A DNA stretch of 64,000 nt from Escherichia phage vB_EcoM_NBG2, in sequence record NC_054925.1; one strand, given 5' to 3'. Of the stretch, positions 28,763 to 37,306 are shown piece by piece (within the stretch, counting starts at the first letter, position 1; each line of letters opens with the position of its first letter). Under the pieces are notes generated by a model. The model saw only the letters and a list, made by a program, of their open reading frames with translations, did no database searches and was not told the origin of the DNA. Made by a program: the position numbers and the translations under genes.

Positions 28763-29236
28763 TTATTTGAACGATTTAACGTACTGAATAGAACCTTTAC
28801 TATTTACAAAGGCAATTTTACCATTTTTATTATACATTGTAGCAGTACGTTGATAGCCATAAGTTTGTTTACCAGATTGATAACCAACTAATGCAAAATT
28901 ATCTTCACCCATTTTATTCTGTTTAGCGCGAATGCGTTCATGACCATGTGCCATAAGAACCTTAGCATCACCAGTTGCAATGGATCGACGAGTTTTTTCA
29001 TCTTCAACTGTATTAACAAAGTCGTCAAATGAATCAAATTTAGCATGAGATTTATTATACAGTTTTCCATCTACTGCATAATTATATCCCTGTACATCCA
29101 TCTCAACTTCTGTACCATCATCCAATACAGCAGTAATTTTTTGACCTTTTTTAAATTTCAAAAGATCAGTAAAAGATTCAGCGATAATTTGAGAATTAAT
29201 AGCTGCTTCAGTGATAAATTCTTGATATGTTTTCAT
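28763..29236 (-). CDS. internal (capsid-injected) protein with capsid-targeting sequence
   Basis: 157 aa; begins MKTYQEFITEA, the T-even capsid-targeting sequence pattern; adjacent to e as ip genes are in T4. Confidence 0.7.
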   Translation of the reverse strand: MKTYQEFITEAAINSQIIAESFTDLLKFKKGQKITAVLDDGTEVEMDVQGYNYAVDGKLYNKSHAKFDSFDDFVNTVEDEKTRRSIATGDAKVLMAHGHERIRAKQNKMGEDNFALVGYQSGKQTYGYQRTATMYNKNGKIAFVNSKGSIQYVKSFK

Positions 29237-32764: not shown

Positions 32765-32797
32765 AGAGTATTATACTCCGGATAGTTTGTAAACTAT
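32765..32797 (-). promoter_or_regulatory. early promoter
   Basis: Minus strand GTTTAC (32794..32789) and GAGTATAAT. Confidence 0.5.
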
Positions 32798-33015
32798 GTT
32801 AACATCGCCTTTTGCTGCTTTATAACCTTCAGCCCAAGATACAACCGAGTTTTTATCTGAAGATTCAAATTCTGGCATTGGGCTTTCGCCAATGTTCACG
32901 CAGTATGTTTCTTCATTTTCGTCGAACCAAATAATTAAAGTAGTCATTTATTTCTCCGTTTCTGTATTTGTTTTGATAAGTCTATAATAACACCATCCTT
33001 GGTGTTTGTACACAA

Positions 33016-33279
33016 TTATTTCATATTATTGAAATATTCTTCTGCGATTTCGTCGTTATCATGGTAAACTTTAGAAGACAGTTTAACATAACCTTCAGCA
33101 GTGAACATGTTAATCACAACCTTTACAGTATACCACTGACCATCTTCATTACCCATTACTGCGTAAGTTTCAAACATCGGATGATCAGGACCGATAACTT
33201 TAATATCATTCACTGTACGACCGAAATCTTCTGAAACACATTTCATAAAGAAGTTGAACAGTTCGCCGTAATTATCCAT
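33016..33279 (-). CDS. hypothetical protein (87 aa, start revised)
   Basis: Start MDNYGELFNFF with GGAGA SD downstream of early promoter. Confidence 0.45.
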   Translation of the reverse strand: MDNYGELFNFFMKCVSEDFGRTVNDIKVIGPDHPMFETYAVMGNEDGQWYTVKVVINMFTAEGYVKLSSKVYHDNDEIAEEYFNNMK

Positions 33280-33314
33280 TTCATTCTCCAAGTTGTTTTC
33301 TGTATCAGTAGTTG

Positions 33315-33355
33315 ATAGTTGTATAGTACCATGGAAGGACAAGGATGTAAACAGT
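33315..33355 (-). promoter_or_regulatory. early promoter with conserved leader
   Basis: Minus strand GTTTAC (33352..33347) and TGGTACTATAC (33331..33321). Confidence 0.55.
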
Positions 33356-33485
33356 TTTGTGAAAAAAATTTTTAAAAAGTTTTAGGGAATTCTAGGGTCA
33401 GGAGGGGCAATTAAAAGGTAGGATAATATATTATAAAGGGTATAAACTAAATGATGCCTAGAGAGGCCCGGAAAGGCCTAGATAC

Positions 33486-33516
33486 CAAAAAGCCCCAACC
33501 TTTCGGTCGGGGCTAA
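33486..33516 (-). terminator. intrinsic terminator (copy 1 of identical 31-bp element)
   Basis: Minus strand GCCCCGACC-GAAA-GGTTGGGGC followed by TTTTT; identical to 34042..34073 element. Confidence 0.6.
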
Positions 33517-33521
33517 GAATG

Positions 33522-33995
33522 TTATTTGATTTGTTTAGCAGACCAAATGCGGTCTTTAATAATTTTTTGGATGTCTTCAACATACTCAAGAGAGTGAGCA
33601 TGTGGATTATCTTTGAAACTATAAGCACGAGCTAGTTTTTGGCCTTCAGTTTTGATTACTAAAAGCTCTTTAAGGATAGCTTCATATTTGGAGATAATTC
33701 CTTTAACAATATTTTTTTCTTGTGCAGCTTTAGGATCTGCTTTAGGAGCAGGTTTACCCGAAGCCTTTGCAAAAGCAGCGCCAGTAGCAACTAGACTTTT
33801 CCAGGCCATACTAACCGCATTTCCTGTAAATCCTTCTGCTTTCATGTCGCGAGCAAATTGGAATCGCGATTCGTCAGAAGCATCTTTATAAGAATATTTA
33901 CCCGCTGCAATGGCTGCTTTTGCGACAGCTTGAATTTCGGTGCTAGATGCTTCATTTAACACCGCTTCATTTAAAAATTGAGTATATGATTTCAT
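33522..33995 (-). CDS. internal-protein-like protein with capsid-targeting sequence (158 aa, start revised)
   Basis: Start at MKSYTQFLNEA (CTS-like); Ala/Lys-rich; flanked by identical 31-bp terminator hairpins. Confidence 0.55.
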   Translation of the reverse strand: MKSYTQFLNEAVLNEASSTEIQAVAKAAIAAGKYSYKDASDESRFQFARDMKAEGFTGNAVSMAWKSLVATGAAFAKASGKPAPKADPKAAQEKNIVKGIISKYEAILKELLVIKTEGQKLARAYSFKDNPHAHSLEYVEDIQKIIKDRIWSAKQIK

Positions 33996-34041
33996 CTTAT
34001 TTCCTGTTTTAATTCGTGGATTTAATATACTAATATTTATA

Positions 34042-34073
34042 CTAAAAAGCCCCAACCTTTCGGTCGGGGCTAA
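34042..34073 (-). terminator. intrinsic terminator at end of tRNA/stable-RNA unit (copy 2 of identical 31-bp element)
   Basis: Minus strand GCCCCGACC-GAAA-GGTTGGGGC followed by TTTTT. Confidence 0.6.
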
Positions 34074-34099
34074 GCCTTGCGGCAACCTTGTCGGGGTTC

Positions 34100-34387
34100 C
34101 ACCTGCTAAGGCAAGTGTTTGTACGAAACGCCGGGATTCGAACCCGGTTATTAAGTAGTTGACGCTACTCAATATTTTTAAAAGGCCATATCTCGACCAT
34201 ATCCGAACGTTCCGTCAAAAACGCTACTCGGCTTATGGCAAAGATATTTCCTCGAATCGATAATTCGGTGCGCCGTTTCTGCTGTGATATAAGGGGACAT
34301 TAACAAAACATAAAGATTTATTAATGCCAGTCCTTAAACAGGGAACATCAGTCCGACGACTTGCCGGTAGCGACCCGGCTTCTTGTC
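34100..34387 (-). ncRNA. candidate small stable RNA region downstream of the tRNAs (T4 species 1/2 RNA equivalents?)
   Basis: No protein-coding frame; contains a tRNA-like T-arm (CCGGGTTCGAATCCCGG at 34131-34147) without a matching acceptor stem; lies between tRNA-Arg and a terminator. Confidence 0.3.
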
Positions 34388-34463
34388 TGGTCGAGGCAGT
34401 AGGGATCGAACCTACGACCCAGGACTTAGAAGGTCCTTGCTCTTCCTTCTGAGCTATGCCTCG
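34388..34463 (-). tRNA. tRNA-Arg (anticodon UCU)
   Basis: Cloverleaf read by hand: acceptor CGAGGCA/TGCCTCG, anticodon loop CTTCTAA, T-loop TTCGATC, encoded CCA. Confidence 0.8.
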
Positions 34464-34467
34464 TATT

Positions 34468-34542
34468 TGGCGGACGTGATAGGATTCGAACCTATAACCA
34501 ATCGCTTAACAGGCGATCGCTCTGCCATTGAGCTACACATCC
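34468..34542 (-). tRNA. tRNA-Asn (anticodon GUU)
   Basis: Acceptor GGATGTG/CACGTCC, anticodon stem ATCGC/GCGAT with loop CTGTTAA, T-loop TTCGAAT, encoded CCA. Confidence 0.7.
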
Positions 34543-34546
34543 AAAT

Positions 34547-34633
34547 TGGTGGGGAGTGGTGGAGTCGAACCACCCGAGTCGCAATGACAATGAATTTACA
34601 GTCCACACCGCTACCCCTACGGGATAACTCCCC
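34547..34633 (-). tRNA. tRNA-Tyr (anticodon GUA), type II with long variable arm
   Basis: Acceptor GGGGAGT/ACTCCCC, anticodon loop CTGTAAA, long variable arm, T-loop TTCGACT, encoded CCA. Confidence 0.65.
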
Positions 34634-34642
34634 AAATTAATT

Positions 34643-34717
34643 TGGTGGCCCTGGGTGGAATTGAACCACCATCTGGCGATTATGAGTCGCGTGCTTGAAC
34701 CTTCCAGCTACAGGGCC
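34643..34717 (-). tRNA. tRNA-Ile/Met (anticodon CAU; probably the AUA-reading tRNA-Ile as in T4)
   Basis: Acceptor GGCCCTG/CAGGGCC, anticodon loop CTCATAA, T-loop TTCAATT, encoded CCA. Confidence 0.7.
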
Positions 34718-34718
34718 T

Positions 34719-34794
34719 TGGTGCTGATTGACGGAATCGAACCGCCGACCTTCTCATTACAAGTGAGTTGCTCTACCTACTGAGCTAAATCAGC
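34719..34794 (-). tRNA. tRNA-Thr (anticodon UGU)
   Basis: Acceptor GCTGATT/AATCAGC, anticodon loop CTTGTAA, T-loop TTCGATT, encoded CCA. Confidence 0.8.
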
Positions 34795-34799
34795 AAAAC

Positions 34800-34889
34800 T
34801 GGCGGAGGCGATAGGATTTGAACCTATGAGTCGCCGGAGCGACTGCCGGTTTTCAAGACCGGTGCATTAAACCACTCTGCCACGCCTCC
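34800..34889 (-). tRNA. tRNA-Ser (anticodon UGA), type II
   Basis: Acceptor GGAGGCG/CGCCTCC, anticodon loop CTTGAAA, long variable arm, T-loop TTCAAAT. Confidence 0.8.
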
Positions 34890-34891
34890 AG

Positions 34892-34965
34892 TCTCCATAC
34901 AAGGATTTGAACCTTGGACCTCCTGATCCCAAATCAGGCGCTCTACCAAACTGAGCTACACGGAG
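34892..34965 (-). tRNA. tRNA-Pro (anticodon UGG), CCA not encoded
   Basis: Acceptor CTCCGTG/TATGGAG, anticodon loop TTTGGGA, T-loop TTCAAAT; 3' end followed by AC rather than CCA. Confidence 0.75.
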
Positions 34966-34975
34966 TAAATTAAAT

Positions 34976-35049
<74 letters not shown>

Positions 35050-35054
35050 AAATT

Positions 35055-35141
35055 TGGTGCGAGAAGTGGGACTCGAACCCACAAGGAAATCATTCCGCAG
35101 CATTTTAAGTGCTGTGCCTTTACCAATTTGACCATTCTCGC
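35055..35141 (-). tRNA. tRNA-Leu (anticodon UAA), type II
   Basis: Acceptor GCGAGAA/TTCTCGC, anticodon loop CTTAAAA, long variable arm, T-loop TTCGAGT, encoded CCA. Confidence 0.8.
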
Positions 35142-35142
35142 G

Positions 35143-35215
35143 CTGGGAATAAAGGACTCGAACCTTTGCATCCTGGAATCAAAATCCAGTGCCTTACCAA
35201 CTTGGCTAATTCCCA
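35143..35215 (-). tRNA. tRNA-Gln (anticodon UUG)
   Basis: Acceptor TGGGAAT/ATTCCCA, anticodon loop TTTTGAT, T-loop TTCGAGT; 1-nt spacer to tRNA-Leu (dimeric precursor arrangement). Confidence 0.8.
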
Positions 35216-36249: not shown

Positions 36250-36537
36250 TTACAAAAGATTTTTAGCAATAATCTTGAGATGTGCCGCAGAAATGTGTTT
36301 AGCTTTAAACAACGCAGTTTCTTCAGCAGGAGAGATAACGATTGTAGCACCATCCTTTTTAGCAGACCACCCATCACCTAGGTAAACAGTACCTTTGATT
36401 TCTTCGCCATCAACCAGACTAATCATTGGTTTACCTTCTCGTCCTTTATTTGCTTTAATAACTTCAGAAGTAAGAGTAGCCTCGGTAATGGTAGAAACCG
36501 GGGTAGTTGTAGAAGTAAATTCTTTAAATGTTTTCAT
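36250..36537 (-). CDS. ipI: internal protein I (capsid-injected; anti-restriction against GmrSD-type enzymes in T4)
   Basis: 95 aa; MKTFKEFTSTTTPVSTITEA... capsid-targeting sequence and overall match to T4 IPI as recalled; early promoter upstream. Confidence 0.85.
   Translation of the reverse strand: MKTFKEFTSTTTPVSTITEATLTSEVIKANKGREGKPMISLVDGEEIKGTVYLGDGWSAKKDGATIVISPAEETALFKAKHISAAHLKIIAKNLL

Positions 36538-36609: not shown

Positions 36610-37306
<697 letters not shown>

Follow-up and report, generated by a model that had tools for sequence, protein, structure and literature searches.

Organization of the Region between e.8 and rnaC

The window, that is, the whole 64-kb stretch of DNA that was analysed, contains a small gene, here named gene A, between the genes e.8 and rnaC. 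The sequence-only reading had described a gene between two repeats with a product starting MKSYTQFLNEA. This gene was recovered as an ATG-initiated open reading frame on the minus strand (33522..33995) encoding 157 aa, a candidate internal protein of phrog_2280, and its 474-nt coding sequence is also annotated in GenBank relatives. All 60 of the 60 sampled records label it "hypothetical protein".

The fixed upstream neighbor of the gene A cassette is the region with the rnaD and rnaC homologs (34075..34387, minus strand), which were placed at approximately 34267-34385 and 34122-34260, respectively, by alignment to the annotated T4 rnaC and rnaD; no Rfam family matched this region. It is preceded by 10 tRNA genes (Arg, Asn, Tyr, Met, Thr, Ser, Pro, Gly, Leu, Gln; 34388..35215, minus strand) without segB. 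The downstream flank of the cassette is the intergenic region upstream of e.8 (33280..33481, minus strand) with a match to a sigma-70/early-like promoter at 33323-33351, and the annotation of phages fPS-65 and fPS-90 also has a 'predicted early promoter' upstream of e.8. The e.8 homolog itself (33016..33279, minus strand, 87 aa from ATG) is the conserved flanking gene downstream. All neighboring genes, the tRNAs and the transcribed hairpins described below share the minus strand.

The window also harbors ipI (36250-36537), Acb1 (36610-37065) and a DUF7412 protein with a targeting sequence (28763-29236). These genes had been grouped with gene A into an anti-defence and injected-protein island. 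The members are indeed present, but the label is a loose one, as they are scattered across 8.3 kb with about 15 other conserved genes, ordered as in T4, in between.

Gene A Is Flanked by Twin Predicted Terminator Hairpins

The 64-kb window contains exactly two copies of the 31-mer AAAAAGCCCCAACCTTTCGGTCGGGGCTAAG (33487-33517 and 34044-34074), and no third copy with up to three mismatches was found there. The earlier claim of twin identical 31-nt repeats was thus correct, while its coordinates were off by 1-2 nt and spanned 32 nt for the second copy. When widened to 36 nt, the repeat has 35/36 identity (33482-33517 versus 34039-34074). The RB32 copies have 2 mismatches to each other, while the 31 nt are identical in the window.

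On the minus strand, each copy folds into AGCCCCGACC-GAAA-GGUUGGGGCU followed by UUUUU, that is, a stem of 10 bp (7 of them G-C) with a GAAA loop and a U-run on the transcribed strand. The folding energies were -22.5 and -24.9 kcal/mol, with z-scores of -3.6 and -3.8 in a 61-nt context. By its structure, each repeat copy is a predicted intrinsic (Rho-independent) terminator. The two hairpins were the top two terminator-like matches in 28-37 kb, in line with what the sequence-only reading had proposed; no Rfam family matched the hairpin. In the upstream copy (34039..34074, minus strand), the stem-loop spans 34048-34071 and the U-run 34043-34047; it is the counterpart of the single hairpin of T4, T6 and PST and is predicted to close the tRNA-rnaD-rnaC transcription unit. 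The stem-loop of the downstream copy (33482..33517, minus strand) spans 33491-33514 and lies 7 nt past the stop codon of gene A.

We considered whether the hairpins may be independent terminators that became similar by convergence, so that the repeat would have neither a common origin nor significance. A 28-nt version of the hairpin, a TTCC variant, was also found close to rI in Mosigvirus Av-05, as well as in viral contigs otherwise unrelated to T4-like phages, indicating that the sequence can recur. Against convergence, the 35/36 identity covers, in addition to the stem, the loop and the A/T run as well as the flanking ATAC, none of 100 dinucleotide shuffles had a match to AAAAAGCCCCAACCTTTCGGTCGGGGCTAAG, and the copies sit at the exact ends of the insertion or deletion that distinguishes related phages. 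These results effectively refuted convergence. A generic terminator was also rejected as explanation, since the hairpin in Tequatrovirus genomes, with one or two copies per genome, was always found at the e.8-rnaC locus. It had been stated beforehand that a repeat found at every terminator would speak against an exchangeable module; this is not the distribution of the hairpin in Tequatrovirus.

Gene A Has Its Own Predicted Late Promoter

A T4-type late promoter, TATAAATA (34034..34041, minus strand), lies 46 nt upstream of the gene A ATG. Its first 3 nt (TAT) overlap the last 3 nt of the upstream repeat. All examined Tequatrovirus loci with gene A have the promoter at this place, and the annotation of fPS-65 and fPS-90 has a 'predicted late promoter' at this position. 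We read AGGAA (34001..34005, minus strand), 5 nt ahead of the ATG, as the ribosome-binding site. The cassette of 557 bp therefore consists of one hairpin, the late promoter, the ribosome-binding site and gene A.

From the promoter sequence, gene A is predicted to be expressed late, alongside the head genes. The slot of the cassette extends from the terminator of the tRNA-rnaD-rnaC unit to the e.8 promoter. Early and middle transcripts arriving from the tRNA cluster would end at the upstream hairpin, TATAAATA directly past this hairpin would turn on gene A, and the second hairpin would end the gene A transcript ahead of e.8.

The Gene A Product Resembles T-Even Internal Proteins

Codons 1-10 of gene A (33966..33995, minus strand) encode MKSYTQFLNE, a capsid-targeting-like propeptide. 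The start of T4 IPII and IPIII is MKTYQEFIAE|A, compared to MKSYTQFLNE|A for A. In T4, residues 4 and 7 determine targeting and residues 8 and 10 processing, according to a review of the mutagenesis by Mullaney and Black (PMC9026906). All of these positions (Y4, F7, L8, E10) are kept in A, which bears out the capsid-targeting-like start noted earlier. The (I/L)-x-E site of the gp21 prohead protease is present as L8-N9-E10, followed by A11, and cleavage is predicted after E10. From Ala11 on, the protein reads AVLNEASSTEIQAVAK, and from Ala16 on ASSTEIQAVAK; a second LNE|A motif is found at residues 13-16 and an LKE|L at residues 108-111. Other A alleles start with MKTYAQFL, MKSYAEFLTE or MKTYNEFLNE. 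Only two open reading frames in the window have starts that match the targeting motif.

The composition of A (pI 9.46, 17% Ala, no Cys) is close to that of IPII (pI 9.33, 15.8% Ala, no Cys) and IPIII (pI 9.54, 13.9% Ala, no Cys). A was predicted to be all-helical with long helices at residues 88-124 and 131-154, and the AlphaFold2 model (pLDDT 73, pTM 0.40) has six helices. The model had no fold match in PDB, and in BFVD it matched only the ortholog of A itself. Searches of A against Pfam, NCBIfam and PDB sequences gave no meaningful match; a match to dPPR10 was rejected as a helical-repeat artefact, with no stretch passing alone. The phrog_2280 profile, for which the PHROG function label is unknown, matched A over residues 1-157 (E=2.2e-60) and also the product of gene B (E=1.2e-53), a second gene found at this locus in relatives. 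When the alignment of A was compared to B by hhalign, only the propeptide was aligned, and neither BLASTP nor hhalign detected similarity of A to IPI, IPII, IPIII or B past the propeptide (first ~11 residues). No similarity to IPI (PF11634) or to another characterised inhibitor was found.

For virion association, we considered published data for Yersinia phage fD1 (phiD1), whose virion dataset is public as PXD026812 and whose Gp140 is identical to A at 156 of 157 residues. Gp140 was listed as particle-associated by LC-MS/MS of purified virions at the stricter threshold, in a list of low specificity that includes non-structural proteins, and its table entry reads 'hypothetical protein, PPAP' only. 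The neighboring g138 and g139 (e.8) are absent from the particle-associated list. The match is weak proof, since the list also comprises 113-137 of the 277 phage proteins, among them DenV, lysozyme e and NudE, together with 672 host proteins. The paper on fPS-2, fPS-65 as well as fPS-90 contains no proteomics.

Taken together, the targeting determinants, the late promoter, the IPII/IPIII-like composition and the unspecific fD1 mass spectrometry match support that A is an internal protein, which, judged from its sequence, is probably packed into the head and injected with the DNA. Given the MKSYTQFLNE|A propeptide, A would most likely be incorporated into the prohead core, be cleaved by the gp21 protease after Glu10 and possibly also after Glu15, and then stay in the filled head to be injected with the DNA like T4 IPI-III. 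Its likely job, by analogy, would be to disarm a host defence acting on incoming DNA. As A had no match in Pfam, NCBIfam, PDB sequences or fold searches, an anti-defence role is pure analogy.

Alternatively, A may be a late gene with an internal protein-like N-terminus whose product does not act as an injected effector. This product could be an accessory of the prohead core or scaffold that is degraded by gp21, or a cytoplasmic late protein that acquired its N-terminus by recombination with an internal protein gene. The similarity to characterised internal proteins ends with the propeptide, LKE|L at 108-111 and LNE|A at 13-16 could be extra gp21 sites, the long predicted helices would also suit a scaffold-like protein, and the fD1 mass spectrometry is unspecific. 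However, the 10-residue targeting sequence of T4 alone is enough to package foreign proteins (PMC9026906), and peptides of the ortholog were detected in mature fD1 particles at the stricter threshold. Moreover, A is dispensable: T4, T6, T2 and PST lack it and the fPS-65 copy is frameshifted, which fits accessory internal proteins and not core scaffold parts. We therefore consider a non-effector function unlikely and favor an injected internal protein.

The Locus Exists in Different States in Related Phages

The locus is an empty site with one hairpin in T4, T6 and PST, and in such phages the intergenic region upstream of e.8 runs straight into the hairpin. Only A, between two hairpins, is present in the window, RB32, G10400 and fD1. 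RB69 has only B, a targeting-sequence gene (187 aa) that differs from A and lies directly past a single hairpin. Both A and B were found in ECML-134, fPS-65, fPS-90 and IMG/VR contigs, and Mosigvirus-like and JS98-like (170.5-kb) contigs have more targeting-sequence genes at the locus. Among about 742 GenBank records carrying the locus, A was present in 510 phage records, in a single copy each, and B in 165; both together were found at a coverage of at least 80% in 128. The comparison of T-even genomes that had been proposed in advance was hence positive, with none, A, B or A+B at the hairpin, and agrees with the exchangeable module suggested by the sequence-only reading.

The hairpin was the sole sequence common to all junction types. 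Two kinds of 5' flank and three kinds of 3' flank were distinguished at the junctions, and all five sensible combinations were seen. In 17+ loci, A was always located directly downstream of the rnaC terminator, indicating that it is not mobile between loci.

We asked whether loss alone may account for these states. A and B would then be ancestral to Tevenvirinae, the repeats would be the terminators of the individual genes with no role as joints for exchange, and only occasional precise deletion, by slippage or recombination, would have occurred. An exhaustive HMMER search of 1.84 billion representatives returned 10 relatives of A, and the informative ones were all from T4-like phages. Tequatrovirus, Mosigvirus (JK36, L018) and Mosigvirus-like IMG/VR contigs (L011, L013, L015) have homologs of A, and the N-terminal domain is also found in Klebsiella and Yersinia T4-like phages, suggesting an old gene. 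Its constant position is also in favor of loss, and the empty sites are clean single-hairpin junctions, as predicted for deletion between repeats. T4 readily deletes DNA between short homologies, and among 13 T4 deletions that were mapped, GGGC/GCCC motifs were involved in about half; the stem of the hairpin contains GGGGC/GCCCC. The pattern of states could come from deletions alone, without insertion or exchange.

Other results spoke against this explanation. All four states occur among close relatives, and hairpin variants (GACC/AGCC) are found in either copy, depending on the phage (L003/L004 versus L008). One locus (L007) carries a diverged A allele. Its identity to the window was 97.8% through the upstream hairpin inclusive, dropped to 56% in the 5'UTR and 70% in codons 1-78, was 88% in codons 79-157 and returned to 97% from the downstream hairpin on. 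Flanks that are 97-100% identical thus enclose a 5'UTR and N-terminal half of 56-70% identity. The divergence begins exactly at the upstream hairpin, and this switch indicates replacement, not deletion. Loss as the only process is therefore rather unlikely in our opinion.

Another possible cause of the distribution is a homing endonuclease: a cut by SegB in the tRNA cluster would be repaired by copying the donor flanks, including the slot. SegB is known to drive preferential inheritance of the T4 tRNA region, and in T4, T6, PST, RB32, G10400 and fPS-90, segB is 0.4-1 kb away from the slot. However, phages with segB have an empty site (T4, T6, PST), A (RB32, G10400) or A+B (fPS-90), and those without segB have A (the window) or A+B (fPS-65). 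Since the presence of segB does not track the state of the cassette, a SegB-linked distribution was rejected. Co-conversion would also leave the breakpoints exactly at the hairpin unexplained, and it is very unlikely to have shaped the locus.

Probable Turnover of the Cassette at the Hairpins

We conclude, with a probability of roughly 70%, that gene A is part of a self-contained late-gene cassette for a candidate injected protein of the capsid-targeting type, which is swapped or lost at the hairpins of a slot in Tequatrovirus. The two hairpin copies would serve as joints of the cassette. Recombination or replication slippage between them would lead to a clean deletion of the cassette and result in the state of T4, T6 and PST. 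Co-infecting phages would recombine through the hairpin/rnaC side together with either the e.8 side or the gene's conserved 3' half, and such events would add, remove or replace cassettes. Deletion and inter-phage recombination at the joints would together explain that the locus holds none, A, B or A+B. Efficient homologous recombination in T4 reportedly needs about 50 bp, and a repeat of 31-36 bp is short for this process.

We also considered that the hairpin of the tRNA-rnaC unit may act as a dedicated capture site for injected anti-defence cassettes, somewhat like an integron attachment site. The cruciform or hairpin would be preferentially cut, with T4 endonuclease VII as one candidate, or stalled, as at replication forks. 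Cassettes for A, B or a targeting-sequence protein of 205 aa would be inserted, excised as 557-bp circles and swapped at rates far above those that a homology of 31-36 bp would otherwise allow. We regard this idea as unlikely. If it were true, the e.8-rnaC slot would be a third, unlisted arsenal locus that helps to set the host range.

Comparison to Known Exchange Systems

We compared A to the internal proteins of T-even phages as described by Repoila et al. (1994, EMBO J), Mullaney and Black (1996), Bair and Black (2007) and Silas et al. (2025). A shares with IPI-III the type of propeptide with the determinants Tyr4/Phe7 and (I/L)8-x-Glu10. Like these proteins, it has a late promoter and is small, basic, Ala-rich, Cys-free and dispensable, and its gene likewise varies between close relatives within conserved non-coding flanks. 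In contrast, the mature part of A is unrelated to the named internal proteins, and the gene sits between e.8 and rnaC, while the known loci are ipI (57B to tRNA.4) and ipII/ipIII (denV to e). The literature describes two loci only, with an 'absence of IP genes elsewhere'. Our literature searches found no named internal protein at the e.8-rnaC site, and the sequences of A and B were not found in the supplements of Silas et al. (2025). The site is thus not among the two recognised loci and was previously unlisted for such turnover. If A is an internal protein, genes of this type also exist outside the two described loci.

The principle of shuffling is already known from Repoila 1994, Arbiol 2010 and a GenBank note for RB32. 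Conserved elements flanking internal protein genes were proposed to mediate the shuffling. Promoter-early stem-loops (PeSL) are involved in shuffling in RB49/phi1, PST/T4 and nt-1/KVP40 (Arbiol 2010, PMC2839356; Comeau 2014, PMC4122927). In PeSL cassettes, a single gene lies between two conserved promoter/terminator elements, as A lies between the repeats, and the cassette has its own expression signals and is transcriptionally insulated, which also applies to the A cassette. In a sister genome, one PeSL element replaces the cassette; here, T4, T6 and PST have one hairpin and RB69 has a hairpin followed by B. The elements themselves differ. PeSL are about 100 nt long with a sigma-70-like early promoter, while the repeat of 31-36 nt is essentially only a terminator, and the promoter is the late TATAAATA, of which only 3 nt are inside the repeat.

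Phage morons are also autonomous transcription units in intergenic slots, as is the A cassette. However, their insertion is attributed to illegitimate recombination with no conserved flanks, whereas the flanks of A are a duplicated resident terminator. The locus is a clean natural example, with joints resolved to the base pair, of a terminator that can double as a seam for cassette turnover in a virulent phage.

In T4, Ip1, Ip2 and Ip3 are inhibitors of GmrSD type IV restriction enzymes, each acting on a distinct one (Silas et al. 2025). As the three internal proteins neutralise distinct enzymes, injected proteins represent a first-line counter-defence and shape the host range. About 500 sequenced T4-like phages, including many candidates for therapy, carry gene A and about 165 carry B, and both genes were 'hypothetical' in every sampled record. 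A and B are ready-made candidates for new injected inhibitors, and T4, T6 and PST, whose site is otherwise identical but has no cassette, provide natural controls.

The gene has been annotated at the same place in RB32 as RB32ORF133c (NC_008515), with the GenBank note 'flanked by 34 bp imperfect direct repeat'. Unlike our interpretation, this annotation is that of a hypothetical protein, without a link to internal proteins or cassette exchange.

A Duplicated Terminator-Like Hairpin Flanks Gene A

Scanning of the whole 64 kb revealed an exact 31-mer that occurs twice in the window, at 33487-33517 and 34044-34074. The twin repeats of the sequence-only reading therefore exist, with coordinates that were off by 1-2 nt. 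A third copy with up to 3 mismatches is absent from the window, and 100 shuffles yielded no match. The repeat stretches to 36 nt with 35/36 identity. On the minus strand, each copy reads AGCCCCGACC-GAAA-GGUUGGGGCU, followed by UUUUU. The folding energies of the two hairpins were -22.5 and -24.9 kcal/mol (z about -3.7), and the two copies were the best two terminator-like sites within 28-37 kb. Copy 1 (stem 34071-34048, minus strand) is located 3' of the rnaC homolog, and copy 2 (33514-33491, minus strand) 7 nt past the stop codon of A, a candidate internal-protein gene.

The hairpin sequence was found at 529 places in 428 GenBank records. Depending on the phage, either copy can be a variant, whose 5' arm has GACC or AGCC and whose loop is GAAA or AAAA. 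We considered that the hairpin is a generic terminator, repeated at every terminator of this phage family, and rejected this: there are two copies in the window and one or two (535-559 nt apart) in each T4-like genome of IMG/VR, all of them 3' of rnaC.

A TTCC variant of the 28 nt of the hairpin (AGCCCCTTCCGAAAGGTTGGGGCTTTTT) is also present near rI in the Mosigvirus Av-05, an Escherichia phage (L028:5104-5131), which represents a second locus. This variant was also detected in viral metagenome contigs (L027:2726-2753, L033:6962-6989, L032:937-964), which have nothing else in common with T4-like phages and match over only about 34 nt. Its recurrence at these places points either to a mini-terminator that spread horizontally or to striking convergence.

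Gene A Lies Behind a Predicted Late Promoter

The window is a Tequatrovirus (T4-like) segment, and across 33300-34400 it matches hundreds of T4-like phages of Escherichia, Shigella, and Yersinia at 96-98% identity. The gene order from ipIII/e to ipI-57B-57A, tRNA cluster included, is that of T4, and every gene here is on the minus strand. Ten tRNA genes (35215-34388) are followed by rnaD and rnaC homologs (stable RNAs in T4; about 34387-34122) and by hairpin copy 1. The last bases of the repeat provide the first three bases of a T4 late-promoter consensus, TATAAATA (34041-34034). An AGGAA (34005-34001) precedes the ATG at 33995 of the 157-codon ORF of A, which ends at 33522. Downstream of copy 2 are the e.8 upstream region with an early-like promoter match (33351-33323) and e.8 itself (33279-33016). 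From the order hairpin, late promoter, ORF, hairpin, we infer that A occupies a transcriptionally insulated slot, with the late promoter as its sole promoter. The GenBank records of fPS-65 and fPS-90 show identical predicted features at this locus.

The e.8-rnaC Site Exists in Different States

We compared the interval across T-even genomes, as had been proposed, and found the cassette (one hairpin, late promoter, ribosome-binding site, and A) present or absent at the repeats. In T4, T6, and PST, the site is empty, with 252 nt, a single hairpin, and no remnant of A. The window, RB32, G10400, fD1, and IMG/VR contigs harbor only A, with a hairpin on each side. RB69 harbors only B, a different gene with a targeting sequence, right after a single hairpin. 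B of RB69 encodes 187 aa starting with MKTYAEFLTE/A (the slash marks the predicted cut), has its own, different terminator, and is frameshifted as ORF149c+148c. A followed by B is present in ECML-134, fPS-65 (A frameshifted), fPS-90, and several IMG/VR contigs.

JS98-like contigs of 170.5 kb carry a gene for a 205-aa targeting-sequence protein (MKTYNEFLNESVLNEA...) together with a 184-aa membrane-like ORF, and Mosigvirus-like contigs carry the latter beside an A-like gene. This 184-aa ORF (MKLLKYLSWILLVPLDF...), located between rnaC and e.8 in L012, L013, L014, L015, and L024, has a hydrophobic N-terminus, lacks a targeting sequence, and is preceded by TATAAATA. Therefore, the slot is not reserved for targeting-sequence proteins.

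A was detected by tblastn in 510 GenBank phage records, in one copy every time; B was present in 165 records, and both were present at ≥80% coverage in 128. About 742 GenBank records carry the locus, and an evenly spaced sample of their ranking comprised all four states. Every annotation of A among 60 sampled GenBank records was "hypothetical protein" or equivalent. In some reference genomes the cassette genes are disrupted: frameshifts cut A to 112 aa in fPS-65 (g136c, L005:2119-2457) and split B in two in RB69 (ORF148c/149c, L020:7429-7991). The cause is either the decay of dispensable genes or sequencing error.

The Hairpin as Probable Joint of Exchange

When the junctions were aligned, the hairpin core was the sole common sequence. 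Its 5' side is of the rnaC type or the A-3'-end type, its 3' side is the 5'UTR of A, the e.8 intergenic region, or the 5'UTR of B, and all five sensible combinations of flanks were seen. The IMG/VR contig L007 has e.8 (100% identity) and rnaC (98.4%) in common with the window and harbors a diverged allele of A. Identity is 97.8% on the upstream side through the upstream hairpin, 56% in the 5'UTR of A, 70% in codons 1-78, 88% in codons 79-157, and 97% from the downstream hairpin on. Since identity drops at the upstream hairpin, a segment sharply bounded there was replaced; the other crossover lies within the conserved 3' half of A. Judged from these alignments, the locus undergoes exchange and not loss alone. 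In line with the suggested exchangeable module, the site is polymorphic, both by insertion/deletion and by allele, and its joints coincide with the hairpin. The presence or absence of segB, a homing endonuclease gene beside the tRNA genes, is independent of the cassette state.

The 31-36-nt repeats may allow deletion, through recombination or slippage from one to the other, and homologous recombination between co-infecting phages in the conserved flanks may account for gain or replacement. T4 is known to delete DNA between short homologies, and its deletion endpoints often carry GGGC/GCCC motifs.

Protein A Resembles Internal Proteins

A starts with MKSYTQFLNE/A, compared to MKTYQEFIAE/A in IPII and IPIII of T4 and MKTYQEFITE/A in the protein encoded at 28763-29236 of the window. 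Residues 1-10 of IPIII are sufficient for packaging, with residues 4 and 7 mainly responsible for targeting and residues 8 and 10 for processing (review of Black's work, PMC9026906). Y4, F7, L8, and E10 are all kept in A, in agreement with the capsid-targeting-like start noticed in the sequence-only reading. Other A alleles, starting with MKTYAQFL, MKSYAEFLTE, or MKTYNEFLNE, form a bridge to the canonical motif. Across the six reading frames of the 64-kb window, the motif is matched by just two ORF starts.

Like IPII and IPIII, A is basic (pI 9.46), rich in alanine (17%), and free of cysteine. A Pfam search assigned no family, and A belongs to phrog_2280, "unknown function". The family is confined to T4-like phages and tiny, with 13 clusters among 5.8 billion proteins and 10 representatives among 1.84 billion. 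The AlphaFold2 model is all-helical, of moderate confidence, and matched none of the known folds compared.

The g140 protein of Yersinia phage fD1, identical to A in 156/157 residues, was listed as particle-associated by LC-MS/MS. This hit is of limited weight, since 113-137 of the 277 phage proteins were flagged in the same study, DenV, lysozyme, and NudE among them, together with 672 host proteins.

The upstream hairpin would end transcription of the tRNA unit, and A would be expressed late. Its propeptide would bring the product into the prohead, where gp21 is predicted to cut after E10; A may then be injected and act against a host defence.

A has the propeptide cleavage motif LNE/A twice, at residues 8-11 and 13-16 (window 33966-33950, codons 11-16). 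Shorter alleles (153-154 aa) lack exactly that segment of 3-4 residues, which suggests slippage or recombination within the leader-coding region. The protein encoded at 28763-29236 (minus strand), between denV and e, is a single 157-aa protein that replaces T4 ipII/ipIII. It has DUF7412 and belongs to phrog_3155, "internal virion protein", and its fD1 homolog g129 was listed as "Head protein, PPAP". It equals A in length and is unrelated to A past the propeptide.

Relation to Known Cassette Systems

Comeau et al. reportedly counted "more than 30 IP variants" in 2007. In the literature searched, we found no capsid-targeting sequence described for the A family, and Comeau et al. 2007 might list A or B. 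Neither the e.8-rnaC slot as a third cassette locus for targeting-sequence genes nor a tRNA-unit terminator as repeated joint, with a late and not an early promoter, was found in that searched literature. The principle itself is not new, the concept being 30 years old. As summarised in later papers, Repoila et al. (1994) described IP genes with a conserved leader and conserved non-coding blocks alongside, for which a role in shuffling was proposed. The PeSL mechanism (Arbiol 2010, PMC2839356; Comeau 2014, PMC4122927) is analogous and includes the comparison of a cassette against a single element. The RB32 record already carries the remark "flanked by 34 bp imperfect direct repeat" for the same ORF. 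We conclude that the feature is real and that its initial reading holds, the function of A being putative. As candidates for new injected counter-defence proteins, A and B are well controlled, and the locus is a tidy example of cassette turnover mediated by a terminator.

Other Features of the Region

The tRNA cluster (34388-35215) comprises 10 genes including Asn and Tyr, has Met-CAT where T4 has Ile, and lacks segB. The T4 cluster has 8 tRNAs with segB inside, and the inspected relatives differ widely in content (RB69 has only 2).

Even in Mosigvirus and related contigs (L015, L018, L020), the rnaC side (window 34075-34260, including the 3' trailer) keeps 97.8-100% identity, compared to only 70-80% for the neighbouring protein gene e.6. 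By this measure, rnaC, a stable RNA that is covered by no Rfam family, is under very strong constraint. In several GenBank records, short protein ORFs were annotated across the hairpin, rnaC/rnaD, or the e.8 upstream region (G10400_00136, L002:6692-6874; RB32ORF132w, L004:1796-1885; RB69ORF150c, L020:8421-8765); they are probably spurious and overlie regulatory sequence or non-coding RNA.

T4 e.7 (111 aa) is swapped for an unrelated 58-aa ORF (window 32771-32947, minus strand; phrog_5461) that corresponds to PST ORF130 and fD1 g138. It adds a further small replacement polymorphism at a distance of 100 nt from e.8.
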